A stretch of 64,000 bases of DNA from Candidatus Yanofskybacteria bacterium RIFCSPHIGHO2_01_FULL_44_24 (lineage in GTDB: Bacteria; Patescibacteriota; Minisyncoccia; 2-02-FULL-40-12; GWA2-44-9), in NCBI GenBank assembly GCA_001794215.1, contig MGJK01000012.1:4834-68833 (forward strand), written 5' to 3'. The notes under the pieces are model-generated. The model saw nothing but the letters and a program-made list of their open reading frames with translations. It did no database searches and was not told the origin of the DNA. The translations under genes and the position numbers were made by a program. How positions within the stretch are numbered: the stretch's first letter is position 1; the number at the start of each line of letters is the position of its first letter. This document shows, piece by piece, positions 19,182-63,823 of the stretch.

Positions 19182-20993
19182 ATGATTAAAAAAATTGCCC
19201 TCATAACTCCAATAAACGGTGACTGGGCCTACGATAGCTATATGGCTTTGGATGGGCTTATTCAGTTAAAGAAAGAGAAGCCCGATATTGAGTTTTTCAT
19301 TTCCTCAGATCCTTATAGAAAACATCCTTTTCCGGCAATCGAGTATGCTCTACCTAAAAAAGAATTTATCGAATTTGCAAAAAATGCCGATTTAATTTTG
19401 TTGTTCTGGTGCAAGAAGGATACAGATTCTAAATTGGCTGAAGAGATAGGGGAGTGGAACAAAACTGCCTATGTTGACGGTTCGGAATGGGGAATGAATA
19501 AGGGCCGGGACTTTGCGGTTCAGCGCGAGGTATTGTCGGGTGAATACAAAGACTGGGGACGGATAGATGATAAGATGCTCAGCCTGTGCCCTCTCTATTT
19601 CAGGCGAGAAAAGCCTTACATAAAAGGAGTTACTCCTTTGCCCTATGGTATAACTTCCACTTTCACGAAATATTATGAGCCGGCAAAGCCGAAAGATATA
19701 GACTTTTTCTGTGTCTGGGGACAGGACGAGTATCCTTTGACAAGAAGGTACGCCGAAGAGATTTTGGTTGATTTTTGCAAGAAGAACGGCTTCACTTATC
19801 ATGTTGAGAAAACCAAAAATCGCGACGAGTTTTATGAAATATTGTCCCGATCAAAGGTAGGGGTCTCGATAGGCGGCGGGGGATATGATACGGCTCGATT
19901 CTGGGAGATCTTGGGCAATAACTGCCTCCTTTTGACTGAAAGAATCGATATTTTAGAACCGGACAGTAGAGAACTCGACTACGAGAGAATCTATCAGTTC
20001 AATAATTTGTACGATTTTAAGTACCAGCTTGAAAAAGTAGCCAAGTTTTTAAGGGAAGAATATGCCAAAACGGATCTTCTACCGGAATATCAAGAGATTA
20101 TGTCCAAGCACTCGTCCAAGGCCCGGGTCTTAAAATTAATCCAAGAAGCCGAAGTTAAACTCAAAAAAGACGAAGAAAATGGGAAGCTTTGCAGTATAGT
20201 CGTATCTTCATTCGACGGAAATGCCGACATCTGGGACCCCTTCTTTACCCTCTTTTTTAGGTACTGGCCAAACTGCCCTTATCCTGTTTATTTAATAACC
20301 AACCGCAAAGAATACTCAGATAAAAGAGTAATTACGATTAAAGTAGGAGATGACAAGGGTTGGGCCACCAACATTCGTAATGCCCTGAAAGACATATCTA
20401 CGCCGTATGTCATAAACTTGATGGAAGACTTTTTAATAGAAAAACCGGTCAACAATCGATATATTCAATCTCTCGTTGATTACGCGAGCTTAAATAAAAT
20501 AGCCTACATACGCCTATTGCCTAACCCCGGACCTGATAAATATTTTCTAAACGACCTTAGTCTTGGGGAAATAGACAAAAAATCATCTTATAGAACCTCT
20601 CTTCATGCTGCTATTTGGGGTAAGAAAGTCTTCTTGGATTTATTAGTTGACGGAGAGAATCCTTGGAATATGGAACTTGAGGGATCGAAGCGATCGCAAG
20701 CTATAACCGAGCCGTTTCTCAGTGTTAAGGAGGCTGTACTCTACTATTATCATCGCACGGGGGTTATAAGGGGAAAGTGGATGTATGATGCGGTAAGGCT
20801 CTGCAAGCGAGAAGGCATTAAAGTTGATCTTAAGAAAAGAAGAATAGACTACGGCTGGAAAATTAATTCGATGTTCGATCAGATCAGGAAACATCCTTTG
20901 TTAAAAAGAGTTGGATCTATTCCCGCTCTGGGCTGGATTATCAAGAAAACATCGCGATCTCTTGTTGGTTTGATCAGTAATCGCGGATCCTAA
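19182..20993 (+). CDS. hypothetical two-domain protein (possible glycosyltransferase-like; unassigned)
   Basis: 603-aa ORF with coding-like composition in a glycan locus. No confidently recognised motif. Confidence 0.4.
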   Translation: MIKKIALITPINGDWAYDSYMALDGLIQLKKEKPDIEFFISSDPYRKHPFPAIEYALPKKEFIEFAKNADLILLFWCKKDTDSKLAEEIGEWNKTAYVDGSEWGMNKGRDFAVQREVLSGEYKDWGRIDDKMLSLCPLYFRREKPYIKGVTPLPYGITSTFTKYYEPAKPKDIDFFCVWGQDEYPLTRRYAEEILVDFCKKNGFTYHVEKTKNRDEFYEILSRSKVGVSIGGGGYDTARFWEILGNNCLLLTERIDILEPDSRELDYERIYQFNNLYDFKYQLEKVAKFLREEYAKTDLLPEYQEIMSKHSSKARVLKLIQEAEVKLKKDEENGKLCSIVVSSFDGNADIWDPFFTLFFRYWPNCPYPVYLITNRKEYSDKRVITIKVGDDKGWATNIRNALKDISTPYVINLMEDFLIEKPVNNRYIQSLVDYASLNKIAYIRLLPNPGPDKYFLNDLSLGEIDKKSSYRTSLHAAIWGKKVFLDLLVDGENPWNMELEGSKRSQAITEPFLSVKEAVLYYYHRTGVIRGKWMYDAVRLCKREGIKVDLKKRRIDYGWKINSMFDQIRKHPLLKRVGSIPALGWIIKKTSRSLVGLISNRGS

Positions 20994-21098
20994 AGGTTGA
21001 GGTTGTTATATCCTCAAATTGTGGTACCATATGGCCTGAATGGTGTCCTTTTACAATAAGGAGCGGAGTTGCTGATCAAAAAGAAACGCAACATCTAT

Positions 21099-23052: not shown

Positions 23053-24021
23053 TTATTTTTTAATTTGTTCTCTATTCTTAAAGTCATAATAAAGTTTCAG
23101 CCAGTCCAGGAAAAAAATAGAAGGATATTTTTTGTTTTGAAAACGTAACGAGCGGTATTCAAGATGTCTTTGATGTTTACGCCAGTATAAATCTAAATGC
23201 GAAGGGTCGATAATTATGCAATATCTGGCAAAATCTTCTAAGGTATCTTCCATCGTAAATTTAACTTCCCGGCCGATTGTTTTTAGAAAAGTTGTAAAAA
23301 GATGGTTCTCGGGGCCTCCGAAGGAAAGAGGTTTTGTTAGCAGGTCAATTCGCCAATAAGCAGTCATATCTTTAATATGACCGAAGAGGAACTCATCGGA
23401 TAAGTGGTATAACTGAGATCCTAAAGCCTCTGTCCCCAGAGCTATTATGCGGTTTTTTAAAAAAATATTTTGTTCTTGAGAATTTTCCGGGGGGTAGAAT
23501 CTTGTTAGGTTATGCAAATGATCAATGATTTTTGGAGCATATATGCGCTGGTCATTTCGAGTGTTAAGTATGTATTCCACGCCTAATTCCGCTGCTTTTT
23601 CTATTCCTGCAATCGTAGTCGTAATTTGAAAATTAAGATGGAAAGGCCCGGCTATCGAGGGTTTTCTAACGAGGACAACTTCGGCACCTGCTTGGTAAAT
23701 TTTCTCGAGATAAGCCGGCTCCTCGTCATTCCAGGTGGATACCACAATAGGTACTTGAGGGTGAAGCTTTTTGTAGGTTCTTACGGTTTCAAGGGTAAAA
23801 TCATTGGGCTTAATAATTTCTCCCCTTATCAATATTGCCGTTTTGGGATTGACGACAGCGATGCCCATATTAGCTTTTACTTCTGAAGCTTTGACTGGTC
23901 TAATCCGGATGGTTATAAATTTACCCCTTGAATTCTCAATGAAATGCAAAATAGACACTGCGAGCTTTTTTATATAAAAAACTAATTTAATTCTGTATTT
24001 AGTTGGCGTTAAATAACTCAT
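23053..24021 (-). CDS. conserved polysaccharide-locus protein of unknown function (paralog of 39653..40615)
   Basis: 322 aa, about half identical by eye to the 320-aa protein at 39653 (shared NDFTLETVR.YKKLHP...VSTWNDE.PAYL.KI, TIAGI..A.LG.EY.L.TRNDQR.Y, YFPPENSQ, IIDP...DLY). Possibly WavE-like, but not confirmed. Confidence 0.5.
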   Translation of the reverse strand: MSYLTPTKYRIKLVFYIKKLAVSILHFIENSRGKFITIRIRPVKASEVKANMGIAVVNPKTAILIRGEIIKPNDFTLETVRTYKKLHPQVPIVVSTWNDEEPAYLEKIYQAGAEVVLVRKPSIAGPFHLNFQITTTIAGIEKAAELGVEYILNTRNDQRIYAPKIIDHLHNLTRFYPPENSQEQNIFLKNRIIALGTEALGSQLYHLSDEFLFGHIKDMTAYWRIDLLTKPLSFGGPENHLFTTFLKTIGREVKFTMEDTLEDFARYCIIIDPSHLDLYWRKHQRHLEYRSLRFQNKKYPSIFFLDWLKLYYDFKNREQIKK

Positions 24022-39652: not shown

Positions 39653-40615
39653 CTACGCAACGGGTGTCTGTCGGTTTTTGTAATTATTATATATTTTTAG
39701 CCAATCTAAGAAAAAAAGAGGCTGATGTCTTATGTGTTTGTATCTCGGAGTCCGGTATTCCATATGCCTTTCATATTTATGAAAGTACAAATCTGCGTAC
39801 AGAGGGTCGATGATTACGCAGTATTTGGCGTAAGCTTCATGGGAGTCTTCAATGGTCCACAAGATATCTCGGCCAATATTTTTCAAGAAAGTAGAGAATA
39901 GATAGCCCTCCACGCTGGAAAAGTTCTCAGTATCTTTTTTAACTAAATTAATCTGCCAATACCGAACCATGTCTTCAATATTGCCGAAAAGCAGCTCGTC
40001 TGATAAATAATACAGCTTGGATCCTCCGGATCTTGCTCCCAAAGCCGCCAGGCGTTTTTTCATAAAAATTCTTTGAGAATTTTCCGGCGGGAAGTATTCT
40101 AAGAGATTGTGCAGGTATTCAAAAAGACCCGGAGAGTACATGCGCTGGTCGTTCCTGGTTTTTAAAACATACTCGGTTCCCAATGCTTCTGCTCTTTTGA
40201 TACCCGCTATCGTGGAAGCAATTTGAAAGTTAATGTTGAAAAATCTTGCAGGAGCGGTTACTCTCGGTTTTTCACTTAAAACAATCTCCGCATTTTCTTG
40301 GCGAATTTTATCAAGATAGGCCGGATCCTCATCATTCCACGTCGATACTATGATCAGAACTTTAGGGTGAAGCTTTTTGTAGATTCTTACGGTTTCAAGG
40401 GTAAAATCGTTAGCCTTAAGAATTGGACCCTGCATTACAATTGCCGTTTTCGGGTAGCTGCCGATTATTTTGGAATTGCTTTCAATCCCGGAAGCGTACA
40501 TCGGCCTGGCATGAAGAGTCATAAACTTGCCTTTAGTTTTTTCTACCCAATTTAAAAAGAATAAAAATATTTTTTCTTTTTTACGAAGTACCCTAAGCGG
40601 CAATAAAAATTTCAT
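39653..40615 (-). CDS. conserved polysaccharide-locus protein of unknown function (paralog of 23053..24021)
   Basis: See 23053..24021. Colinear similarity over the whole length. Confidence 0.5.
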   Translation of the reverse strand: MKFLLPLRVLRKKEKIFLFFLNWVEKTKGKFMTLHARPMYASGIESNSKIIGSYPKTAIVMQGPILKANDFTLETVRIYKKLHPKVLIIVSTWNDEDPAYLDKIRQENAEIVLSEKPRVTAPARFFNINFQIASTIAGIKRAEALGTEYVLKTRNDQRMYSPGLFEYLHNLLEYFPPENSQRIFMKKRLAALGARSGGSKLYYLSDELLFGNIEDMVRYWQINLVKKDTENFSSVEGYLFSTFLKNIGRDILWTIEDSHEAYAKYCVIIDPLYADLYFHKYERHMEYRTPRYKHIRHQPLFFLDWLKIYNNYKNRQTPVA

Positions 40616-46979: not shown

Positions 46980-47702
46980 TTGTATAAACAGTATAAAGTA
47001 TTGGGTCTTATTCTTGCTCGCGGAGGTTCCAAGTCTATTCCTAAGAAAAATATTAAACTGCTTGGAGGCAAGCCTTTGCTTGCCCATACGGTTGAAAAAG
47101 CCAAAGCCGCCAAGTACATTGACCGGCTCATCCTTTCCACTGACGATAAAGAGATTGCCGATGTCGGCAGAAAATACGGAGCCGAAGTTCCTTTTACGCG
47201 ACCGGCAGAATTAGCCGAAGACAGCACGACCGACTATCCGGTTTTCGTTCATGCGGTTGAGTGGCTTGAAAAGAACGAGAATTGGAAGCCCGATTTTGTC
47301 GTTCACTTACGGCCGACTCATCCTTTTCGTAAAACTTCAGATATCGATAAAGCCGTAGAAATGCTCGCCGGTAATCCGGAAGCCGATTCTGTTTGGACCG
47401 TTGGGCTGCCTCCGGTGACGCCGTACAAGATGTTTTTGGCCGAAGAAGGCCAATTTATTAAACCAGTCGTTACTATCCCCGGAGTAGATGAGGCGTATAA
47501 TCTTCCTCGTCAGAAACTTCCCAAAGCCTACAACCACTATGGCCAAGTTGATGTTATGAGGCACAATACGTTGATGAAAAAGAAATCAATGTGTGGGAAA
47601 AATATCTTACCTCTTTTCCTTGAAGGAGAATTAGTTGATTTAGATACTCTATTCGATTGGGAGTTCGCGGAGTTTCTAATGAAAAAAGGGAAGATCAGAT
47701 AA
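46980..47702 (+). CDS. CMP-nonulosonic acid synthetase (acylneuraminate cytidylyltransferase NeuA/PseF/LegF family)
   Basis: LGLILARGGSKSIPKKNIKLLGGKPLLAHTVEKA...RLILSTDD is the classical N-terminal CMP-NeuAc/CMP-Kdo synthetase motif. TTG start. Short form without an esterase domain. Confidence 0.75.
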   Translation: MYKQYKVLGLILARGGSKSIPKKNIKLLGGKPLLAHTVEKAKAAKYIDRLILSTDDKEIADVGRKYGAEVPFTRPAELAEDSTTDYPVFVHAVEWLEKNENWKPDFVVHLRPTHPFRKTSDIDKAVEMLAGNPEADSVWTVGLPPVTPYKMFLAEEGQFIKPVVTIPGVDEAYNLPRQKLPKAYNHYGQVDVMRHNTLMKKKSMCGKNILPLFLEGELVDLDTLFDWEFAEFLMKKGKIR

Positions 47703-47784: not shown

Positions 47785-48792
47785 ATGATTATTCTAATTG
47801 CCGAATCAAATTATTCTCCGGAAGCGGTAAAAGTCTATAAAACCTTAGGGGAGGTTTACTTTTGGTTTCCCGGTAGTAGAAGTTCCGATGGTGACAAAGT
47901 CGCTAAAAGCGTGTCGGAACTTTCACAACCGGACAGGGACCGATTCTTAAGCAAGATAGATATAATAGTTATTCGGCTTATGCTCAATGTCAGAAAAGAT
48001 TTGATTGACCGGATGTCGAATTTGAAAATAATCGCTACTTCCACGACCGGCCTTAATCATATAGACGTGGATTATGCCGAAAAGAGAGGAGTCAAGGTCA
48101 TATCTTTAAGGGGCGAAACGTTGTTTTTGAGAAATATTCCCTCTACCGCCGAAGAAACCTGGGGTTTACTATTGGCTTTGGTCAGGAATCTTCCCTGGGC
48201 TTTTGATGATGTAAAAAACGGAAACTGGACGCCGAATAAATGGGTGGGCCATCAGCTTATGGGTAAAACAATCGGCTTGTTAGGCCTTGGTCGTTTAGGC
48301 AAGATTGTGGCCGAATATGCCGTCGCTTTTAAAATGAATGTGATTTCCTACGATCCGGCCGTAAGCCAAAAGGAAATGAAGAAATACGGCGCCAAAAAGG
48401 TTGCGATGGACTATTTATTTAAAAATTCAGATATTGTTTCTTTGCATGTGTTGTTGAATGATGAAACTTACGGTTTGGTTAAAGACGATCATTTAAAAAT
48501 GATGAAGCCGACGGCTTATCTGATCAATACTGCCCGGGGCGAGCTGATTGAAAAAGGAGGACTGGAATCTGCCCTTGAAAAGAAATGGATTGCCGGAGCG
48601 GCCATTGATGTCATGTGGGACGAAAAGGACGATAGCGGGCATTTAAAAGATAATAAATTAATGGAATATGCCAAGAAAAATACCAATCTCATCATCGTTC
48701 CCCATATCGGCGGAACGACCTATGATGCCACCCGCATTACTCAGGATTTTATTGCGGAATTAGTCAGGAAAAACTGCAAGAAGAGCGGCTAA
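47785..48792 (+). CDS. D-isomer-specific 2-hydroxyacid dehydrogenase family protein
   Basis: NAD-binding GKTIGLLGLGRLGKIVAEYAVAFKMNVISYDP and catalytic-region ARGELIE...PHIGG. Confidence 0.75.
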   Translation: MIILIAESNYSPEAVKVYKTLGEVYFWFPGSRSSDGDKVAKSVSELSQPDRDRFLSKIDIIVIRLMLNVRKDLIDRMSNLKIIATSTTGLNHIDVDYAEKRGVKVISLRGETLFLRNIPSTAEETWGLLLALVRNLPWAFDDVKNGNWTPNKWVGHQLMGKTIGLLGLGRLGKIVAEYAVAFKMNVISYDPAVSQKEMKKYGAKKVAMDYLFKNSDIVSLHVLLNDETYGLVKDDHLKMMKPTAYLINTARGELIEKGGLESALEKKWIAGAAIDVMWDEKDDSGHLKDNKLMEYAKKNTNLIIVPHIGGTTYDATRITQDFIAELVRKNCKKSG

Positions 48793-51232: not shown

Positions 51233-52345
51233 ATGAAGTTGAAAGATTTTGCCATCACCAATTTTGCTTATGGAAACGGGCCGTATCTAAGGACTACTGA
51301 ACTGGCTCTGTCTTTTAACGACAGGCTTGAAGAGGCCGGAGAAAAAAGATTCGGTATTATTGTTCCCTTGGTTTACGGTGATAAGCAAAAAAGGATTATG
51401 TCTGAAGATTTCGGGACCCGCATGGACGAAATAGTGCTTGATCCGGAGCTGGGAGCGATCCTGAAGGGCGTTTTCTACGATGGGGGCTCTTATTTGGAAT
51501 CTCTCGGGGGGTGGGTTGATAATTTTGAAAAAACTTCGGAATCAATACATAGGTATCTTAAAAATAAATATGGCGATAGCATTGTCGTGGAACTCAATCG
51601 TTCGCCCCGGGTCCGGTATGATATTGCGCCTTCGTATTTCACGTCTTTTGGTTTCATCGGGGAGATATTGGAGAGAATCGGAGAGATCAAGGGTTTGGCG
51701 ATTCCCGAGGGGCTTCTGAATGCCGGTATAAAAACCGCCGGATTGGCCGAGAGCGGCCATAGAATTCACTGCCTCGCTTATCCGGCAACATTCGCACATC
51801 TCAAAGACAGAAGTCCTCGTTGCAAAACCGAAGTCGAAGTTCCGCCCATCATGCTTCCGCCCGCAGTTAATAACGATAACGTCGAGAGAGGCATATACAT
51901 AACGGTAAGCGGAATTGCCGGATTAGGCGATCTTTATGCGAATGCCGGTAAATTCGGTGCGAAAATTTATACCAACAATCCCGATCTTATTCCCGGTAGT
52001 ATAAAGGCCTCGCCCCGCATTATCCCGAACAAAAACATTCTGTTTCAATTTGCCCGTTCCGGCTGGGGCTCAGTTTGGCTATCAATGATTTCCGGGACGC
52101 CTTTAGTCGTTCCCGCTTTTGACTTGAACGACGATCCGGAAATATATTTCAACAATAAGACGATAGAACAACTTGGCATCGGAATAATTTATCGGGGTCA
52201 GCCAATCGAGGAAATACTGGAAGGATGCGCGGAAGTGAAGAAAAACAGCGTTAAGGTTTGCGAGGAGGTCAAGAAACGCTGGGGAACCTTGGATGGCAAT
52301 CGGTATTGCGCCGGATTGTTTGTTAAGGACCTTCTCGGGAAGTAA
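51233..52345 (+). CDS. GT-B fold protein of the MurG/GT28/GT1 type (possibly PseG-like UDP-sugar hydrolase or glycosyltransferase)
   Basis: C-terminal ARSGWGSVWLSMISGTPLVVPAFDLNDDPEIYFNNKTIEQLGIGI matches the GT1/GT28 G-x-G...E...G-x-P.vv.P...DQ/D...NA...G.G signature. Confidence 0.5.
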   Translation: MKLKDFAITNFAYGNGPYLRTTELALSFNDRLEEAGEKRFGIIVPLVYGDKQKRIMSEDFGTRMDEIVLDPELGAILKGVFYDGGSYLESLGGWVDNFEKTSESIHRYLKNKYGDSIVVELNRSPRVRYDIAPSYFTSFGFIGEILERIGEIKGLAIPEGLLNAGIKTAGLAESGHRIHCLAYPATFAHLKDRSPRCKTEVEVPPIMLPPAVNNDNVERGIYITVSGIAGLGDLYANAGKFGAKIYTNNPDLIPGSIKASPRIIPNKNILFQFARSGWGSVWLSMISGTPLVVPAFDLNDDPEIYFNNKTIEQLGIGIIYRGQPIEEILEGCAEVKKNSVKVCEEVKKRWGTLDGNRYCAGLFVKDLLGK

Positions 52346-53320: not shown

Positions 53321-54475
53321 TTGATATCAAGCATGAATGGTTTTAATATTAAAACCCCTTATAGTAGTAGGAGGATAGGCGATAACGCCCCTACTTTTGT
53401 TATAGCCGAAATAGGTAAGAATTTTATCCAGACCAAAAAGGAGAAATCGGTTAAAGAATATCTGAGGAACGCCAAAGAACTGGTAATTTTAGCCAAAAAA
53501 TCCGGAGCTGATGCGGTTAAATTCCAAACCCATAATGTCGAGGATGAACAGCTCAATTTAAAAATAAGAGCCCCGCACTTTAAGGGCGATAGGTACGAAT
53601 GGGTTTCGAGGAATACCAAGGCTACACCGGTTAAAGAGTTTTGGATTCCGCTCAAAGAATTCTGCGATAAGGAAGGAATCACATTTTTCTCTACGCCCTG
53701 CAGTTTAGGAGCCGCAAAGATATTGTCCTCCCTGGATGTGGCTCTGTGGAAAGTCGCCTCTTGGGATATTTTGGATTTTGTTATGCTCGACCATATCAGA
53801 AAAAGCGGCAAACCGGTTATTATTTCCGGCGGAGCCAGTACGGCCGAAGAGATAGACAGATCAATCTCTTATATCCAGGAGAAAAACAAAAATCTTGCCT
53901 TGCTTCATTGTGTTTCCAAGTATCCCTGTCCACCCGAAGAGTTGAATTTGGGTACGATCGGTTTTTTTAAGAAAAGATACGATGTCCCCATAGGTTTTTC
54001 CGATCATTCTTTAGGCATCGAGTCTACCCTGGCCGCCGTTGCCCTGGGAGCTAAGGTGATAGAAAAACATTTCTCCCTGTCCCGAAGCTTATGGGGGGCC
54101 GATCATAGATTTTCCATGACTTCGGCATCGTTTGGTAAAATGGTTACAGAGATAAGGAAAATAGAGGCTAATCCCGGTGCGGCTCAGAAATATTTAAATC
54201 ATGAGAAAGTAAAGCCGAGCCTGAATTTTTCCGGCAAGGTTATCAGAGACGAAGAGAAAAGCATGAAGGCCGTATTTGCCAAGGCTCTTTTTGCCGGACG
54301 GGATATTCCGGCCGGACAAGTTATAAAATCTGATATGTTATACTCAATGAGACCCGGATTGGCGGTCGGAGGACTTCAGCCACTCCACTTCCATATGGTA
54401 GTCGGTCAAAAATCAGCAAAAGATTTGAAGAAGTTCGAACCGATAACGTTAGAAGTTGTAAAATCCGAAATCTGA
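53321..54475 (+). CDS. N-acetylneuraminate-synthase family enzyme (NeuB/PseI/LegI-like) with C-terminal SAF domain
   Basis: FVIAEIGKN...GADAVKFQTH...IGFSDHSLG is the NeuB TIM-barrel region. C-terminal antifreeze-like domain (ARDIPAGQVIKSDMLYSMRPGLAVGG). Confidence 0.8.
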   Translation: MISSMNGFNIKTPYSSRRIGDNAPTFVIAEIGKNFIQTKKEKSVKEYLRNAKELVILAKKSGADAVKFQTHNVEDEQLNLKIRAPHFKGDRYEWVSRNTKATPVKEFWIPLKEFCDKEGITFFSTPCSLGAAKILSSLDVALWKVASWDILDFVMLDHIRKSGKPVIISGGASTAEEIDRSISYIQEKNKNLALLHCVSKYPCPPEELNLGTIGFFKKRYDVPIGFSDHSLGIESTLAAVALGAKVIEKHFSLSRSLWGADHRFSMTSASFGKMVTEIRKIEANPGAAQKYLNHEKVKPSLNFSGKVIRDEEKSMKAVFAKALFAGRDIPAGQVIKSDMLYSMRPGLAVGGLQPLHFHMVVGQKSAKDLKKFEPITLEVVKSEI

Positions 54476-54608: not shown

Positions 54609-55922
54609 ATGAAGATCCTCATAAGTATCCCAAGTCCCGAATATTACAGGAACTATATTACTTCGCCGGCGCTTTCGGAAATAATCGAAAGCTGTTATTT
54701 TATTGTGCCCAAGAAAATGGCGGATAAGGATTTCGGAGTGCCTAAATCGAGGGTTGCGGTCTATGATTATCCTGCCGACAAAGAAGTTCTGCACAAACAT
54801 TTATTTCATATCAATACAGGAAAGTTTGAATCTCGAAGCACTTCCCTGAAGTTCAGATTTATGAGACTAAGCAAAAGGAGCCAGGTTCTCTATCGTATTC
54901 TTGGATTGCCGGTTATTTATGAACTGACGCGATTTTTCATCCTCTCCCGAGCGGACGATAGACGGTTATTCTCTGTAATTAAAAGCATTCAGCCGGATGT
55001 AATTTTAATGCCTTCAAGCGGGTACGAGGGGATTACTTTTGAAATTATAAAGACAGCCAAGAAGCAGGGGGTACCGACTTTGATGCTGGTAGATAACTGG
55101 GATAATTTAGTGAGCAAGACCATTTTTACCTATAAGCCTGATTTTCTTTCGGTCTGGGGACCGCAGGCGGTTAAAGATGCCGTTGAAATTCATGGAATAC
55201 CCAAAGAAAGGATCTTTCCGATCGGAACGCCGAGGTTTTTCAATTATTTCAAGAACAGATCAGAGTATCCGTCACCTTACCCCTTTAAGTATGCACTTTT
55301 TGCCGGAAATTCAACGGGTTTTGATGAGCTGTCTGCGCTTAAAAAACTCGAAGAATATATCGAGAAAAATAATTTAGATCTCAAGATCGTTTATCGGCCC
55401 CACCCAATGAGGCAGAAAAGGAAATGTCCGGATAATTTTGTTGAGAGCGAATTCAAACATGTTGTACTGGATCTCCAGGCCAAGGAATATTATAACCGGG
55501 AAAAATCCAAAACCCCTTCTGATCTTCCTGATCTGGATTATTATCCCCGGGCCTTGGCTAATATGGAGTTTATGATCTGTCCGTTATCAACCATGTTGAT
55601 TGAGTGTCTTCTTTTTGATAAGCCAGTTTTTGTTTTGGCTTATGATGACGGGATACATTTCGTAAATCCTAAGAACTTGTATAAATATTGCCGACACTTT
55701 GAGGGGATCGAATATCTTAGAAATCTCGAAATCATTCACGAGTTCGAAGATCTAACCAGGGTGTTTACGGTTGATTTTTCCAAGAAAAGAATGGAGAAAG
55801 AAATTCCTTTGAGTTATTATCTTTCAGAAAAAACACGGCACTATCCGCACCATGTGAAATTACTGGTTGAGGATATCAATGCAAAATTCAAAAATAACCT
55901 GCGGGTCGGCCCGCAGGAATGA
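54609..55922 (+). CDS. putative GT-B glycosyltransferase with HP motif (sialyltransferase / KpsC-KpsS Kdo-transferase-like)
   Basis: 437 aa. Rossmann-like N-domain (VILMPSSGYEGITFEIIKTAKKQGVPTLMLVDNWDN) and a C-domain with YRPHP (His-Pro motif as in CMP-sugar-dependent sialyl/Kdo transferases). Confidence 0.4.
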   Translation: MKILISIPSPEYYRNYITSPALSEIIESCYFIVPKKMADKDFGVPKSRVAVYDYPADKEVLHKHLFHINTGKFESRSTSLKFRFMRLSKRSQVLYRILGLPVIYELTRFFILSRADDRRLFSVIKSIQPDVILMPSSGYEGITFEIIKTAKKQGVPTLMLVDNWDNLVSKTIFTYKPDFLSVWGPQAVKDAVEIHGIPKERIFPIGTPRFFNYFKNRSEYPSPYPFKYALFAGNSTGFDELSALKKLEEYIEKNNLDLKIVYRPHPMRQKRKCPDNFVESEFKHVVLDLQAKEYYNREKSKTPSDLPDLDYYPRALANMEFMICPLSTMLIECLLFDKPVFVLAYDDGIHFVNPKNLYKYCRHFEGIEYLRNLEIIHEFEDLTRVFTVDFSKKRMEKEIPLSYYLSEKTRHYPHHVKLLVEDINAKFKNNLRVGPQE

Positions 55923-56009
55923 AAAATTATCGTAACCCGCAAAACATAGTTAGCTTTGCGAGTGTCATTAATTTTTAACTTTCATCTCTACGCTTTAATT
56001 TTCCGTACT
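55923..56009 (+). repeat. AT-rich intergenic hairpin element (family copy C, lacking left arm)
   Basis: gaaaaattatcgtaa + hairpin cccgcaaaa-catagttagc-tttgcgag + aatttttaactttcatctctacgctttaatttt, ending at ATG 56010. Confidence 0.55.
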
Positions 56010-57221
56010 ATGAATCCGCAACTTCTTCAAAAGTCAGATAACAACGAGAATGTCTTTAGAGTTACGCTACCTTACGACTTCCTTATGCCGAATATCAACC
56101 ATGACGAGCCGGCTTTAAAAAGGAAGGTAATTTTCTGGGGGACGTGTTTCGGACAACTGCCGAAAGATCTGGATATCGAGCGCTACGTCACGATGGTTAA
56201 TAAATGTCTGGATTATGTTCGGCAAGAATGTCGCGGTTTCGAGCTTTATTACAAACCGCATCCTGCCGAAAAAGACGAGTTCAAGCTGCTAAATTTAGAA
56301 TCTTTTACGTTGCTTAGCGATCCTGCCGTTGGAGAGGTTTTTTTGTGGAAAAATTGGGATCAGATAGCTTATTCGTTCTCAGTTATGTCCAATGCCACCA
56401 TATCAGCTTATGATTTCGGGATAAATTCCTATGTTTTTTACAAACTTTTTGATTCGGTTTTGGGTAGAGCTTCTTTTGAGTCTTGTGAATGGTTTTTTCA
56501 AAGTATGCCAGAAGATTTTTTTATTAAAGATTTAGGCCAGGGACTTAAAGGAAACAGGTCTCTTCTCGGAAAGGACGATTTCTTAGAGAATAAAATGAAA
56601 AATATGTTAAACAACAACAAAGAGGGCAGAATCTGGTTTATTATAGTTGAACCAGCGCTGATTACTGCCATGGTATCGCTTGTAAGCTTGATTAAACAAC
56701 TGGATCCGGCCAGAAAAACTGGACTGATTATTTCGAAGCAGAAACGGTGGAGAGCGGTAAGCATCGATGAATTCAAAAAATATTTCGATATAATCGCGGT
56801 ATTTCCAAAAATTTCCTATACTCTTAAGCTGAGTCGATTATTCGAGGCCATAAAAACAGCCCTTCAAATTAGAAGATTTGATATTAAGCCGGAAGACATC
56901 TTTATGGGGCTATCTCATAATTCTTTGGTCGAAAACTGCTTTATTTCTTATTTTTCGGAAAACAAAAAAATCGCTTTTTTTTCGGATATTTATTTCGATA
57001 TGATGTATAATTTAAGGTATGCCACCTTTTTTGCTAATAGTGATTTTAAAACAAAATTGGCGAGCAAACTTTGGGGCTTGGTTTTCGAGCCGTTGTTGGG
57101 ATTGTACCGGACCATTTATCTTCAATATGGTGACGGTCGGGTTTTGAACATAACCAGATATCGAAAGCCGATGGATAGAATATACGATGAAATATATTTG
57201 GCTCATCTGCAAAGAGGATAG
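56010..57221 (+). CDS. hypothetical protein with HP motif (possible second CMP-sugar-dependent transferase)
   Basis: YYKPHPAEKDEFK parallels YRPHPMRQKRK of the preceding protein, with similar size and architecture. The ORF finder start at 55956 lies inside the repeat; ATG (MNPQLLQK) is at 56010. Confidence 0.35.
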   Translation: MNPQLLQKSDNNENVFRVTLPYDFLMPNINHDEPALKRKVIFWGTCFGQLPKDLDIERYVTMVNKCLDYVRQECRGFELYYKPHPAEKDEFKLLNLESFTLLSDPAVGEVFLWKNWDQIAYSFSVMSNATISAYDFGINSYVFYKLFDSVLGRASFESCEWFFQSMPEDFFIKDLGQGLKGNRSLLGKDDFLENKMKNMLNNNKEGRIWFIIVEPALITAMVSLVSLIKQLDPARKTGLIISKQKRWRAVSIDEFKKYFDIIAVFPKISYTLKLSRLFEAIKTALQIRRFDIKPEDIFMGLSHNSLVENCFISYFSENKKIAFFSDIYFDMMYNLRYATFFANSDFKTKLASKLWGLVFEPLLGLYRTIYLQYGDGRVLNITRYRKPMDRIYDEIYLAHLQRG

Positions 57222-58231: not shown

Positions 58232-59365
58232 ATGAAAATAAACAGTCATAATGAATGGGATAAGCTGAAAGAAATAATAGTCGGGCGGGCAGAAGGCCAT
58301 GCCCCGCTTGTTTTTCCGCACGGCTTAGTTTCTCCCGAGTTATTGGAAAAATCTGTCAAATTGGCTCGCCAAGCTTATCCCCAGTGGCTAGTTGATGAAA
58401 TTAGCGAGGACTTGGAGGGGCTTTGTGATGTTTTGAAATCTTTCGGCGCCAAGGTTTATAGGCCCGACCTTTCTCATAATAATAAATTGTTTACAACTCC
58501 ATACTTTTCTGCGGTAGGCGACCATGTTTATAATATGAGAGATCTTCACTTGGTAGTCGGCGATAATGTCATTGAGTCGCCTTCGCAGGAGCAACACAGG
58601 TATTTTGAGGCCATGGGCCTGTATCCTATTTGGTATGAGTACTTCAAAGCAGGGGGATTTAAATGGATCGCCGGTCCTAAGCCGCGCATTCCCGGAAATC
58701 ATATGGAAGTCTATACCGTTCAAGGTAAATCTCAGTACGATGATGGCCAGAAATATACTCGGCTTACCGAAGAGGAGATCTTATTCGAGGCCGCTAATAC
58801 TTTGAGAATGGGCCGGGATCTTTTATACCTTGTTTCAAGATCCGGCAATTACCTTGGCGCCAAATGGCTTCAGAGCGTTTTAGGGAGCGATTATCGGGTC
58901 CATACGACCAGTGAAATTTACCGTTCAAGCCATATAGATTCTACCGCCATGGCATTGCGTCCCGGTTTGGTTATGCTCAATGCCACTCGAGTTGATTCAG
59001 AAACGTGTCCTGCGGTTTTTAAAAAGTGGGATAAAATCTATTTTTCTGACATTGTTCCCACGCCGCAAAGAACACTCGATATTCATGAGAAAGTCAGGAA
59101 ACCGGTTCATATTGAATTAGAAAAATTGGGAGTAAAATCAGGCCTGGGATCTATCAGTTCTCCGTGGATAGGCATGAACTTTTTGTCCATAGACCCCAAT
59201 CACGTAGTAGTTGACAAGATTCAGGTGCCTTTGATGAAAATTCTTGAACAGCACGGTATCACGCCGGTACCCATATCTTTCAGACACTCTTACTTTATGG
59301 GCGGTATTCATTGCAGTACGCTCGATACGGTTAGAGAAAGCAAACTTGAAAGTTATGGCGATTAA
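58232..59365 (+). CDS. amidinotransferase-superfamily enzyme (glycine/inosamine amidinotransferase-like)
   Basis: C-terminus FMGGIHCSTLDTVRESKLESYGD closely resembles the catalytic-Cys C-terminus of AGAT/StrB1 amidinotransferases (GGFHC.T.D.RRRG.L.SY.D). Length ~377 aa is appropriate. Confidence 0.6.
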   Translation: MKINSHNEWDKLKEIIVGRAEGHAPLVFPHGLVSPELLEKSVKLARQAYPQWLVDEISEDLEGLCDVLKSFGAKVYRPDLSHNNKLFTTPYFSAVGDHVYNMRDLHLVVGDNVIESPSQEQHRYFEAMGLYPIWYEYFKAGGFKWIAGPKPRIPGNHMEVYTVQGKSQYDDGQKYTRLTEEEILFEAANTLRMGRDLLYLVSRSGNYLGAKWLQSVLGSDYRVHTTSEIYRSSHIDSTAMALRPGLVMLNATRVDSETCPAVFKKWDKIYFSDIVPTPQRTLDIHEKVRKPVHIELEKLGVKSGLGSISSPWIGMNFLSIDPNHVVVDKIQVPLMKILEQHGITPVPISFRHSYFMGGIHCSTLDTVRESKLESYGD

Positions 59366-60881: not shown

Positions 60882-61589
60882 ATGCCATATAGATCTCAAA
60901 AGATCTTAGTGATTATTCCGGCGCGGGGAGGATCAAAAAGGTTACCCGGTAAGAATATAAAGAAGATCGGCGGAAAGCCGATGATTGCCCATGCGATCGA
61001 AGCGGCCAGGAAATCAAAATATGTCGACAGGGTAGTCGTTTCGACTGATGATAAGGCAATAGCCAGTATTGCGAAAAAATATAAAGCCGAAGTGCCATTT
61101 GTGCGTCCGGCCGAACTTGCCTCTGATACGGCGCCAACCCTCCCTGTTTTACAGCACGTTGTTAAATATGTTGAGGAAAATGATAAATTCAAGCCGGATT
61201 TAGTTGTTCTGATTCAGCCGACAAATCCGCTTGTCAGATCTGAAGATGTGGACGGAACTATAGAAACTTTATTCAAAACCAACACTAATTCCTGCTTTTC
61301 TGTTACTGAAATAAGTCAGAGGCCGGAATGGATGTATAGGATGGATAATAATCCCGCAGAACTTTTTCTAAAAGAAGAATCTGGCCCGACGAAAAGATCA
61401 CAGGAACTTCCCCGACTGGCTATCATAAATGGCACGGTTTATGTAATGAAATACGAAACTCTTATGACAAAAAATAAAATACGGGATGGCAATACGAGTA
61501 TTTATGTGATGCCCCGGGAAAGATCGGTGGATATTGATGATAAGTTTGATTTCGAGTTGGCAAAGTTTTTGTTCCAGAGAAATAAATGA
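60882..61589 (+). CDS. CMP-nonulosonic acid synthetase (NeuA/PseF/LegF family), second copy
   Basis: ILVIIPARGGSKRLPGKNIKKIGGKPMIAHAIEAA...RVVVSTDD. Paralog of 46980. Confidence 0.8.
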   Translation: MPYRSQKILVIIPARGGSKRLPGKNIKKIGGKPMIAHAIEAARKSKYVDRVVVSTDDKAIASIAKKYKAEVPFVRPAELASDTAPTLPVLQHVVKYVEENDKFKPDLVVLIQPTNPLVRSEDVDGTIETLFKTNTNSCFSVTEISQRPEWMYRMDNNPAELFLKEESGPTKRSQELPRLAIINGTVYVMKYETLMTKNKIRDGNTSIYVMPRERSVDIDDKFDFELAKFLFQRNK

Positions 61590-62626
61590 AAAAAATTATA
61601 AAAATTGGAGATAAATTTATTGGAAAAGGTTATCCGGTTTTTGTGATGGCTGAGGCCGGAGTCAACCATAACGGCAAATTAGATCTGGCGCTTAAACTTG
61701 TCGATGCGGCGGCCGATGCCGGAGCCGATGCGATAAAATTCCAAACATTCAGGGCGGAAGAGGTTGTTATAGCCGAGGGTGAGATGGCCGAATATCAAAA
61801 GAAAAATACGGGCAAGAATCAAAGTCAGCTCGCAATGCTTAAGAAATTGGAATTTCAGGAAGAATGGTATCCCAAAGTTATAAAAAGGTGTAAAGAAAGA
61901 GGCATAATATTCCTATCAACTCCTCATGGCGGTTTTGCTTCCGTCGATCTTCTTAATAAGTTTAAAGTCCCAGCCCTTAAATTCGGTTCAGGAGATTTAA
62001 ATAATCTGCCGGTATTAGAATACGCAGCTCGTCTGAATAAGCCGATAATTTTGAGTACGGGGATGGGGAATATGGAAGAAATTAAAGAAGCCGTTAAAAC
62101 CATAAGCAAAAAGGGGAACGATAATCTGATAGTTTTACACTGTACTACGAATTACCCCTGCCCTTTGGAAGAGGTGAATCTAAATGCCATGAAAACCATA
62201 GAAAAAGAAGTTGGTGTTATGACCGGATATTCTGATCATACGGCCGGGTATGATACGGCGGTCATGGCTGTGGTTATGGGTGCACCGCTTATAGAGAAGC
62301 ATCTTACTCTTGATAAAAAAATGAATGGGCCGGACCATAAAGCATCGGCGGATCCGAAAGAATTCAAAGAGATGGTGATGAAAATAAGAAATGTCGGTAT
62401 TGTCATGGGTCAAGGTAAAAAAGAGCCAACTGTATCCGAACTCAAAATGTTGCCATTAGTCAGAAAGAGCGTGGTGACACTGTCTGATATTAAGAAAGGG
62501 GATCTGTTCACCGCTCTTAACATAGGGATCAAAAGACCTGGAACCGGTCTTGCACCTAAATATCATACAGAACTGATCGGCTCAAAATCTAAGAAAGATA
62601 TTAAAGCCGGCACCCTCCTTGACTAA
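61586..62626 (+). CDS. N-acetylneuraminate-synthase family enzyme (NeuB/LegI/PseI-like), second copy
   Basis: VFVMAEAGVNHNGKLDLALKLVDAAADAGADAIKFQTF...GYSDHTAG and a C-terminal SAF domain. Overlaps the upstream gene by 4 nt. Confidence 0.85.
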   Translation: MKKIIKIGDKFIGKGYPVFVMAEAGVNHNGKLDLALKLVDAAADAGADAIKFQTFRAEEVVIAEGEMAEYQKKNTGKNQSQLAMLKKLEFQEEWYPKVIKRCKERGIIFLSTPHGGFASVDLLNKFKVPALKFGSGDLNNLPVLEYAARLNKPIILSTGMGNMEEIKEAVKTISKKGNDNLIVLHCTTNYPCPLEEVNLNAMKTIEKEVGVMTGYSDHTAGYDTAVMAVVMGAPLIEKHLTLDKKMNGPDHKASADPKEFKEMVMKIRNVGIVMGQGKKEPTVSELKMLPLVRKSVVTLSDIKKGDLFTALNIGIKRPGTGLAPKYHTELIGSKSKKDIKAGTLLD

Positions 62627-62680
62627 TCAGCATTTTTATATTACTCTAAGCGGCAGCAAATTGAAAACGGGAGAAATAAA

Positions 62681-63823
62681 ATGAAAAAAATAGCATATAT
62701 TTCAGGTACTCGAGCGGATTTCGGGTTGATGACACCCGTTCTATGGGCTATTGAAAAGAGCTCAAGATTGAATCTTCAAGTTTACGCTACGGGCATCCAT
62801 CTGATGAAAGATTTTGGTTTTACCTTTAATGAAGTCAGGAAAGAATTTCCTAGAGTGAAAAAAATAGAGGCAACCTTTAAATCGGACGACAGAATTGGAA
62901 CTGCCGGTTTCACCGGGGAGTTTATGGGCAGATTTGTGGAGACTCTGGCTGAAGACAAGCCTGATTTTCTCTTGGTTCTTGGCGATAGGATCGAGATGCT
63001 GTGCGCCGCTGTTGCCTGTCTTTACCTCAGGATCCCGGTCGGCCAACTTCACGGAGGAGATAGGAGCAGTACCGTTGATGAATTGGCTCGCCATGCAATC
63101 ACTAAGCTTTCGCATATTCACTTTCCGGCGACCGTAGATGCTGGTGAAAGAATAAAGAAGATGGGTGAGGATGATTGGCGGGTACATGTTGTCGGCGCCC
63201 CGGCTTTAGACATTATTTTGAACAAGCAGTTGCCTACGCGGGAGGAACTATTTAAAAAACTCGGGCTGGATCCGAAAAACAACGTCATTTTAGTCACCCA
63301 ACATCCGGTGAGCGAGGAAATAGAAGATGCCGGATTCCAAATGGAGGAGACTCTATCGGCGGTGAAGACATTCAATCTGCCCGTGGTTGTGACTTACCCT
63401 CATGCCGATGCCGGCGGAAGAAAGATTATCGAGGTTATAGATCGAGAAAAGGGCAATTCTCAATTCCGAATTTTTCCTAGCCTGACTTATAAAGATTTCT
63501 TAGCTCTTGAAAGAGAGTGTGCGGTTTGGGTCGGAAATTCCAGCGGGACGATGATCGAGTCATCTTCTTTTCAAACCCCCGTAGTTGAGGTGGGTGAGCG
63601 TCAGAAGGATAGGGAACATGGCGATAATTTGATAAAGGTCGGATATGACCGCAGAGCGATATCGGCTGCGATAGATAAGTCGCTGAACGACAGAGAATAC
63701 CTGCTCAAATTAACCAAGATAAAGAATCCTTGGGGCGACGGAAAGACCGGTCCGAGAGTCGTTCAAGTGCTCGAAGATTTAAAAATCGATTCCAGATTGT
63801 TGAATAAGCAGATCAGCTATTAG
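62681..63823 (+). CDS. UDP-N-acetylglucosamine 2-epimerase (hydrolysing), NeuC/LegG-like
   Basis: ISGTRADFG...LVLGDRIEMLCAAVACLYLRIPVGQLHGGD is the NeuC pattern (GDR.E and HGG motifs). Confidence 0.8.
   Translation: MKKIAYISGTRADFGLMTPVLWAIEKSSRLNLQVYATGIHLMKDFGFTFNEVRKEFPRVKKIEATFKSDDRIGTAGFTGEFMGRFVETLAEDKPDFLLVLGDRIEMLCAAVACLYLRIPVGQLHGGDRSSTVDELARHAITKLSHIHFPATVDAGERIKKMGEDDWRVHVVGAPALDIILNKQLPTREELFKKLGLDPKNNVILVTQHPVSEEIEDAGFQMEETLSAVKTFNLPVVVTYPHADAGGRKIIEVIDREKGNSQFRIFPSLTYKDFLALERECAVWVGNSSGTMIESSSFQTPVVEVGERQKDREHGDNLIKVGYDRRAISAAIDKSLNDREYLLKLTKIKNPWGDGKTGPRVVQVLEDLKIDSRLLNKQISY

Follow-up and report, generated by a model that had tools for sequence, protein, structure and literature searches.

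Two unannotated genes within a nonulosonic acid cluster

The window analysed here, a 64,000-nucleotide stretch of contig MGJK01000012.1 from Candidatus Yanofskybacteria bacterium RIFCSPHIGHO2_01_FULL_44_24, contains two neighbouring genes at 54609–57221, referred to below by their products, protein 1 and protein 2. A reading made from the letters alone (the sequence-only reading) had put them forward as paired transferases of nonulosonic acids (NulO) activated with cytidine monophosphate (CMP). The two genes, the motif they share and the relevant genes around them are as follows:

54609..55922, + strand: protein 1 gene, an open reading frame (ORF) with ATG start, 437 amino acids (aa); canonical-order GT-B protein of an unannotated family
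55392..55406, + strand: YRPHP of protein 1 (aa 262–266), in the C-terminal half, where strand 2 of the C-terminal Rossmann domain ends
56010..57221, + strand: protein 2 gene, 403 aa; GT-B protein, circularly permuted on the evidence given below
56250..56264, + strand: YKPHP of protein 2, its His-Pro (HP) motif, aa 81–85 of 403 (aa 99–103 of the longest ORF)
46980..47702, + strand: CTP_transf_3, the first CMP-ulosonate synthetase, PseF-like; first set
47785..48792, + strand: D-2-hydroxyacid dehydrogenase gene; first set, inside the NulO cluster
53321..54475, + strand: divergent NeuB-family synthase directly upstream of protein 1 (PF03102, E = 2.5e-70)
60882..63823, + strand: second set, comprising CTP_transf_3 (60882–61589), NeuB (61586–62626) and NeuC (62681–63823)

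As in the sequence-only reading, protein 2 was taken to start at the ATG at 56010, which is used by its homologs and by a database protein of 100% identity (P0121, 403 aa); the longest ORF (55956–57221) opens with a TTG at 55956. P0121 is recorded as a hypothetical protein of a Candidatus Yanofskybacteria genome. The size range of 420–440 aa originally given for both products holds for protein 1 but not for protein 2, which reaches 421 aa only when counted from the longest ORF. The Y[RK]PHP motif, which had been pointed out in both genes, was found twice across the six frames of the window, once per gene, against a chance expectation of ~ 0.004 occurrences in all window ORFs of at least 150 aa, and its sharing is therefore considered real.

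Both genes belong to a long glycan cluster on the + strand and lie, as had been claimed, between two sets of NeuB and CMP-synthetase (NeuA) genes. The first set also includes several methyltransferases, and the NeuB-family synthase at 53321–54475 scores under the NeuB and PseI equivalog cut-offs alike. On the 3' side of protein 2 follow a polysaccharide deacetylase, an unannotated 377-aa protein and a methyltransferase, and then the second set, with a NeuB at 432.9 bits (cut-off 399.65) and a NeuC at 373.6 bits (cut-off 235.9). The remaining glycosyltransferases found in the window were of the GT4, GT2 and WavE types, and the GT52 and GT38 models had no match in the 32 window ORFs scanned.

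Neither protein matched a Pfam family at E ≤ 1, GT4 families included. An NCBIfam scan returned weak matches only, that of protein 2 being irrelevant, and neither protein had a significant match when the PDB was searched by sequence and by profile. Membership in GT4, already doubted from the letters alone, was rejected, given the lack of a Pfam match and a GT4 control alignment (hhalign) that gave a probability of ≤ 1.3% against both families.

Domain order, conservation and predicted function of protein 2

An exhaustive profile search of 1.84 billion representatives yielded 308 relatives of protein 2, and domain order was tabulated for 172 of them. Fifty-five were colinear with protein 2 over their full length, and 61 (~ 375–450 aa) had the two halves in the swapped, canonical order, their residues 1–200 aligning to profile positions 200–397 and their residues 200–390 to positions 10–200. 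BLASTP comparison with one relative (P0181, 402 aa) gave the same picture, as aa 19–201 of protein 2 matched its aa 211–394 (32% identity, E = 2e-23) and aa 203–395 matched its aa 2–192 (27% identity, E = 7e-18). Since the matches fall into two swapped pieces, the relatives can be assigned the usual GT-B order, in which the HP domain comes second; protein 2, judged by sequence comparison, is almost certainly a circular permutant of this canonical-order family. A Rossmann-like N-terminal domain with the motif in the C-terminal domain had been described for both proteins, which is correct for protein 1 but not for the permuted protein 2, where the motif lies in the N-terminal domain. The parts of protein 2 are the following:

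56010..56615, + strand: segment A, aa 1–202, nucleotide (CMP)-binding Rossmann domain and former C-terminal helix; counterpart of the C-terminal half of the canonical relatives
56334..56390, + strand: E109...S124...S127, 3' of the HP motif; candidate ribose and phosphate contacts
56616..57218, + strand: segment B, aa 203–403, second Rossmann-like domain; counterpart of the N-terminal (acceptor-side) half of the canonical relatives
56895..56936, + strand: D296...E308-N309, candidate catalytic base by analogy with the D/E-D/E-G motif (PMC4202792)

The new N-terminus of protein 2 corresponds to the former interdomain linker, and the former C-terminal helix (aa 190–202) runs straight into the former first strand (RIWFII). 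In a neighbour-joining tree (midpoint root, no bootstrap), 26 permuted sequences formed one clade within the canonical diversity, which suggests that the permutation arose in a single event. An artefact of mis-joined ORFs was rejected, as 55 sequences from independent sources, including the 26 aligned members, have the same order. The literature searched yielded no description of a GT-B glycosyltransferase that is circularly permuted. The canonical relatives are likewise unannotated, with PF07388 matched by 5 of 56 (best E = 6.8e-10) and BFO_1060 by 2 of 56, and the two with a source organism name are hypothetical proteins of Chloroflexota.

A word-indexed search with protein 2 returned 27 homologs, the named ones belonging to lineages of the candidate phyla radiation (CPR; Yanofsky-, Vogel- and Roizmanbacteria, Paceibacterota). 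The alignment of 26 permuted sequences, with identity to the window protein down to 30%, contained 29 invariant columns, among them Y81, P83, H84, P85, E90, S124, S127, R246, W247, D296, E308 and N309. Across 82 sequences (the 26 after de-permutation and 56 canonical relatives), H84 was conserved in 99%, P85 in 100%, S127 in 99%, E109 in 91%, S124 in 89%, N309 in 85% and D296 in 84%, with G44, Y81 and E90 also conserved. The HP motif of the GT38, GT52 and GT80 sialyltransferases is present in the CMP-binding Rossmann domain of protein 2. The AlphaFold2 (AF2) model of protein 2 was confident in both domains (predicted local distance difference test, pLDDT, 89; predicted template modelling score, pTM, 0.88). 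One permuted protein of this type (P0175, 643 aa) carries an extra C-terminal extension of ~ 250 aa of unknown nature.

Structure matches of protein 2 spanned ~ 140–160 aligned residues each, corresponding to one domain, and comprised polysialyltransferase SiaD (5wc6, score 11.7), KpsC (6mgb, 10.7), the GT80 sialyltransferases 4r83, 2zwi and 2ilv (about 10) and KrkA (9yfx, 9.1), a retaining transferase of Kdo (3-deoxy-D-manno-octulosonate); all of these listed matches are CMP-ulosonate-dependent enzymes. Within the permuted family, 6 of 26 members matched PF07388 (best E = 9.4e-6) and 3 of 26 matched PF07922. One of the homologs (P0142, 36–39% identical to protein 2) scored 30.8 bits with PF07922, above the gathering score of 26.1, and its residues 9–120 aligned to positions 143–251 of the 272-position GT52 profile, so that the N-terminal part of protein 2 would correspond to the CMP-binding C-terminal part of sialyltransferases.

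All seven loci examined for protein 2-type genes or canonical relatives contained NeuB and CTP_transf_3 (protein 2-type genes in the window and in loci L005, L006, L018 and L019 of other genomes, canonical relatives in L017 and L020). In L005, L006, L018 and L019, the protein 2-type gene was located directly 3' of NeuB or a few kb from NeuB and CTP_transf_3. Two permuted paralogs per locus were observed in two other CPR genomes (L005, 9977–11248 and 19615–20877; L019, 7986–9182 and 13335–14507), each locus also containing two genes for CTP_transf_3 and one or more for NeuB (two in L005). The genes directly upstream of the protein 2 homologs at 8073–9983 in L005 and 8096–9994 in L006 encode NeuB-SAF-AP_endonuc_2 fusions of 632–636 aa, and a separate AP_endonuc_2 gene precedes the canonical relative in L020.

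On the basis of the GT38 and GT52 matches of family members, the conserved residues and the loci with NeuB and CTP_transf_3, protein 2 is likely to be a CMP-ulosonate-dependent transferase, and the earlier assignment to the HP-class CMP-nonulosonate transferases is well supported in its case. In GT52 and GT80 enzymes, the HP histidine is located at the CMP phosphate and has been proposed as the general acid, and activity of PmST1 depends on Asp141, His311 (HP), Glu338 and Ser355/Ser356 (PMC4202792). In protein 2, H84, E109, S124 and S127 follow in the same order, at +25 and +15/+18, compared with +27 and +17/+18 for His311, Glu338 and Ser355–356 of PmST1. Retaining transferases of Kdo and pseudaminic acid (Pse) depend on a nucleophile motif, QxxxD, located upstream of HP (PMC12887879). 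In the HP domain of protein 2 the first strand has the sequence VIFWGxxF, in that of protein 1 LFAGxxxxFDE, neither with a conserved Q...D, and KpsC/KpsS-type retaining chemistry was rejected for both proteins for want of this motif. For protein 2, its absence makes an inverting, sialyltransferase-like mechanism the better guess. In such a reaction, His84 would assist departure of the CMP phosphate, and a carboxylate of segment B (D296 or E308) would deprotonate the acceptor hydroxyl.

It is improbable, in our estimate, that protein 2 has no catalysis of its own and is instead a relic, permuted and degenerate, or serves as an accessory or regulatory protein that binds CMP-NulO, or alternatively that it is a polymerase or hydrolase. 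In favour of such readings, the domain order is reversed, the window protein fails to match the Pfam sialyltransferase models, polysialyltransferases are the best structural and Pfam matches of the family, and hydrolase side activities are known for GT80 enzymes (PMC4202792). However, the invariant columns of the permuted alignment include the HP, Ser and Glu residues common to canonical relatives, the model is confident in both domains, and several CPR lineages have kept the family in their NulO clusters, often in duplicate, all of which speaks against these readings.

Protein 1, its relatives and its gene neighbourhoods

Protein 1 had 260 homologs, none with a Pfam domain, distributed over CPR, Altiarchaeota, Melainabacteria/Vampirovibrionales, Desulfobacterota, Bacteroidota (including the isolate Pedobacter superstes), Oligoflexales and Planctomycetota; genome contigs were scanned for homologs with a 20-sequence alignment. 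Its AF2 model (pLDDT 94.7) has the complete GT-B fold in canonical order, and two features of the N-terminal domain stand out:

54774..54989, + strand: five-helix basic insertion, aa 56–127 (helices from the model)
55098..55118, + strand: W164-D165...K170 (DNWDNLVSK), N-domain motif with candidate catalytic base

The insertion accounts for +9 of the net charge of +10 of protein 1 and, as modelled, possibly forms a membrane or acceptor surface. Across 62 sequences of the family, W164, D165, R263 and P264 were invariant and K170 was at least 90% conserved. In the family alignment (P0030–P0049), a coherent subclade lacking H265 reads YRP(N/A/T)xTQH, e.g. YRPNVTQH; most of its members have a His four residues later, and NWDT replaces NWDN.

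The two proteins are not close paralogs. Direct profile comparison of protein 1 with protein 2 gave a probability of just 22%, confined to the strand-helix-strand-HP segment, on account of which a recent-paralog relation was rejected. The match rose to 69–79% when canonical relatives or the de-permuted alignment were used, and the de-permuted protein 2 superfamily matched the protein 1 family at 79% (E = 1.6e-5) in a colinear alignment carried by the HP domain. Judged by these profiles, protein 1 and protein 2 are remote relatives only.

The best single reading of protein 1 is also that of a CMP-NulO transferase, to which we assign about an even chance; here the earlier assignment is plausible without being secure. 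It is the less certain of the two because NeuC-type 2-epimerases are the nearest relatives by profile and fold, ahead of TarL and TagF; the PDB, searched with Foldseek, returned generic, non-discriminating GT-B matches. The BFO_1060 model (NF046086) had weak matches in 49 of 62 family members (best E = 6e-10), with 30.4 bits (E = 2.1e-7) for protein 1 over aa 101–213 only. BFO_1060 is the strain 92A2 ortholog of Tanf_01245, which is needed for terminal Pse on the Tannerella O-glycan, the CMP-Pse pool persisting without it, and its family is genetically implicated in transfer of Pse or legionaminic acid (Leg) in Tannerella (PMC5420450). Among 11 informative loci, which represent several bacterial phyla as well as Altiarchaeota, a CMP-synthetase was present within 10 kb of the protein 1-type gene in 10, often adjacent to it, and NeuB in 8.

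Alternatively, protein 1 could be a divergent member of the 2-epimerase lineage acting earlier in the pathway, as a nucleotide-sugar hydrolase or hydrolysing 2-epimerase (NeuC/LegG/PseG-like), and would then feed the divergent NeuB directly upstream, leaving protein 2 as the only transferase. We consider this unlikely, even though a NeuC mini-alignment matched the protein 1 family with 96% probability (hhalign, E = 2.6e-9, 204 columns), the order NeuB, protein 1, CTP_transf_3 in L003 resembles neuB-neuC-neuA, and seven loci contain NeuB and protein 1 with no Epimerase_2 homolog within 10 kb. Protein 1 matched neither Pfam Epimerase_2 nor the NCBIfam NeuC/PseG models, even at E ≤ 1. The acids of the GDR, HGG-D/E and V-D-E motifs are the catalytic carboxylates of NeuC-type enzymes (SiaA/RffE literature). 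Protein 1 retains an acid at just one of these three positions, D165; in its family, an invariant P135 (in PSS) stands where the epimerases have the GDR aspartate, the HGG-D/E position varies, and the His with which the first C-domain strand of epimerases ends is not conserved. Nor would a +9 helical insertion be expected in a soluble nucleotidase.

Gene neighbourhoods also tell against an epimerase. Protein 1 adjoins a CMP-synthetase with no NeuB nearby in L001 and L004, a bona fide NeuC is already present in the window and in L015, and the NeuB/CMP-synthetase set of L005 and L006 is accompanied by no protein 1 and no extra NeuC. The Altiarchaeota locus L001 contains a transketolase-like gene, methyltransferases, a CMP-synthetase fusion, protein 1 and a flippase, with no gene annotated as a nucleoside diphosphate (NDP)-sugar-forming enzyme, and in L019 a protein 2-type gene occupies a transketolase/CTP_transf_3 module like the protein 1-type modules of L013 and L015. 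Because of the evidence from L001, L005/L006, L019 and the NeuC loci (window and L015), and because the two NeuB/CMP-synthetase sets of the window are paired with protein 1 and protein 2 (compare L005 and L019), the transferase reading of protein 1 is favoured.

Transketolase/DXS-like genes were seen near CTP_transf_3 in L001 (5607–7535), L004 (1–808), L013 (7951–9987), L015 (8049–9992) and L019 (9192–11096), in the last three immediately next to a gene of the protein 1 or protein 2 type, and none was present in the window. This linkage suggests a CMP-activated sugar acid built with a thiamine pyrophosphate (TPP) enzyme.

A TagF-like phosphotransferase, which would use a polyol or sugar phosphate activated with cytidine diphosphate (CDP) and create a phosphodiester decoration instead of a glycosidic NulO linkage, is a rather improbable identity for protein 1: its W-(H/D)...K loop and C-domain His mirror W299-H300...K306 and H433 of TarL, and a TagB-superfamily domain has been reported for the Tannerella enzyme (PMC5420450), but it has no PF04464 match, one PF04464 protein aligned to its family at 1.3% (hhalign; a weak test with a single sequence), the invariant His base of TagF-like enzymes is Asp165 in protein 1 and the second His only 82% conserved, and the conserved neighbour is CTP_transf_3 (CMP-ulosonate synthetase family), not a TagD/TarI-type CDP-polyol enzyme. 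Matches to TagF alone, with the HP motif outside the active site, would have spoken against the sequence-only reading, but this is not what was observed; TagF shares the fold of protein 1, and the motif ends the second strand of the nucleotide-binding domain.

Several other genes of the window and of the compared loci may bear on the chemistry of the sugar. A gene for a B12-binding radical SAM (S-adenosylmethionine) protein, which may serve C-methylation or another radical modification of the sugar, is present in the NulO clusters of the window (21069–23027, + strand), L018 (3822–5339), L019 (3050–4780) and L020 (9654–11042). A D-2-hydroxyacid dehydrogenase like that of the first set was also seen beside a protein 1 homolog in L003 (8935–9876, a Desulfobacteraceae contig); it is a matter of speculation that such an enzyme supplies a glyceroyl or lactoyl N-acyl group, as in Pse5Am7Gra of Tannerella. 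Further genes noticed in the window were:

58232..59365, + strand: 377-aa protein, no Pfam or NCBIfam match; C-terminus ...GGIHCSTLD
51233..52345, + strand: 370-aa protein in mid-cluster, no Pfam or NCBIfam match
23053..24021 and 39653..40615, − strand: two WavE-family genes inside the otherwise + strand cluster
19182..20993, + strand: 603-aa ORF, no Pfam match at E ≤ 0.001

The C-terminus of the 377-aa protein resembles what we take to be the Cys-nucleophile end of amidinotransferase or arginine-deiminase-type enzymes, and this protein possibly provides the N-acetimidoyl-forming step for a Pse5Am- or Leg5Am-type sugar. The 370-aa protein could be another divergent GT-B or PseG-like protein.

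Overall interpretation and comparison with known systems

On balance, we lean towards both genes encoding GT-B-type enzymes that transfer the CMP-nonulosonic acids of the surrounding NeuB and CMP-synthetase genes, which is the most likely explanation for the pair. The acceptor would be a glycan or lipid-linked, with CMP as the leaving group. Protein 1 would act in the same way as protein 2, its candidate catalytic residues being W164-D165...K170 (N-domain) and RP(H)P (C-domain), and its basic helical insertion possibly points to a membrane-bound acceptor.

Several observations weigh against this interpretation. The window protein 2 has no GT38 or GT52 Pfam match at E ≤ 1, such matches being limited to more distant members of its family. 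H265, the HP histidine, is retained by 51 of the 62 sequences of the protein 1 family and missing in 18%. BFO_1060 scores of the protein 1 family (20–31 bits) are far below the 200-bit cut-off, gene neighbourhood alone does not separate a biosynthetic nucleotidase from a transferase, and all catalytic roles proposed for residues of either protein are drawn by analogy.

Pseudaminic, legionaminic and related acids decorate many microbial surfaces, and to our knowledge few transferases for them are known; the two widespread and wholly unannotated families described here are new candidates for this step. Protein 1-type proteins occur in several bacterial phyla and Altiarchaeota, protein 2-type proteins in CPR, and canonical relatives of the latter in Chloroflexota and others. 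The GT-B fold is usually regarded as fixed in acceptor-then-donor order, and the protein 2 family indicates that its two Rossmann domains can trade places in nature, which is of use for studies of how folds evolve, for engineering of enzymes and for annotation pipelines in which colinearity is taken for granted. We put it at slightly better than even that the protein 2 family is a working GT-B glycosyltransferase, circularly permuted by nature and of single origin from a canonical NulO-transferase family, making up, with the protein 1 family, two new glycosyltransferase families acting on bacterial and archaeal nonulosonic acids. The cluster as a whole suggests CPR investment in elaborate NulO-bearing surface glycans.

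Neither protein belongs to any of the curated families tested; although their predicted mode of action is that of HP-motif GT-B sialyltransferases, they do not fit into GT38, GT52, GT80, GT107, BFO_1060, Epimerase_2, TagF or GT4. With KpsC/KpsS (GT107, PF05159), WbbB (GT99), KpsS1 (GT118) and KrkA (GT140), they share the HP CMP-binding motif in a Rossmann domain, and a KpsC chain (6mgd) has YKPHP at the aligned position, although with a non-significant E of 0.3. The QxxxD motif found upstream of HP in these families (PMC12887879) is absent from both proteins, so a double-displacement retaining mechanism is not expected, and the KpsC/KpsS-like character suggested by the sequence-only reading stands for the CMP-binding domain but extends no further.

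TagF-like enzymes (TagF, TarL, Bcs3; PF04464) have the GT-B scaffold in common with protein 1, and CMP is the leaving group there too. In TarL, H300, a catalytic residue stacked on Trp in an N-domain loop, is the base, and the invariant H433 of the C-domain contacts the phosphate of the leaving CMP (PMC10901376); the motif His of protein 1 would be the positional equivalent of H433, and its W164-D165...K170 resembles the W299-H300...K306 loop, an equivalence read from the motifs and not from superposition. Protein 1 differs in that its candidate base is Asp instead of His and the activating enzyme linked to it belongs to the CMP-ulosonate type.

With NeuC/LegG 2-epimerases (PF02350, TIGR03568), protein 1 has in common a strand-PD motif, an acid and basic pair (V-D-E...R aligning with W-D-N...K in hhalign), a Y-P-x-H ending C-domain strand 2, and an S/T-rich loop followed by Glu. 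It differs from them in its 70-aa basic helical insertion and in matching no family model.

Tanf_01245 and TFUB4_00887 of Tannerella forsythia (BFO_1060, NF046086), at 445 and 442 aa, are close in size to protein 1 (437 aa) and have been reported as GT-B/TagB-like proteins with an HP motif, encoded beside NulO genes and a methyltransferase (PMC5420450). The matches of the protein 1 family to BFO_1060 are, however, confined to the N-domain segment (aa 101–213), and its Bacteroidota homologs are also non-members (≤ 31 bits).

The closest known counterparts of protein 2 are GT38 (SiaD/NeuS, PF07388), GT52 (Lst/NST, PF07922) and GT80 (PmST1, Photobacterium). The likeness lies in the PF07388 and PF07922 matches of its family, in the His-Pro, Glu and Ser-x-x-Ser residues in PmST1 order and spacing, and in the position of its gene beside those for CMP-NulO synthesis. 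These families have the acceptor domain before the nucleotide domain, an order to which protein 1 conforms and which is reversed in protein 2, where the HP domain comes first, and the window protein 2 reaches none of their Pfam models. In place of a conserved D/E-D/E-G, protein 2 has D296 and E308-N309, and protein 1 has D162-N-W-D165-N. The hosts are CPR, and the donor of protein 2 is probably a modified acid of the Leg, Pse or neuraminic (Neu) type as opposed to N-acetylneuraminic acid (Neu5Ac).

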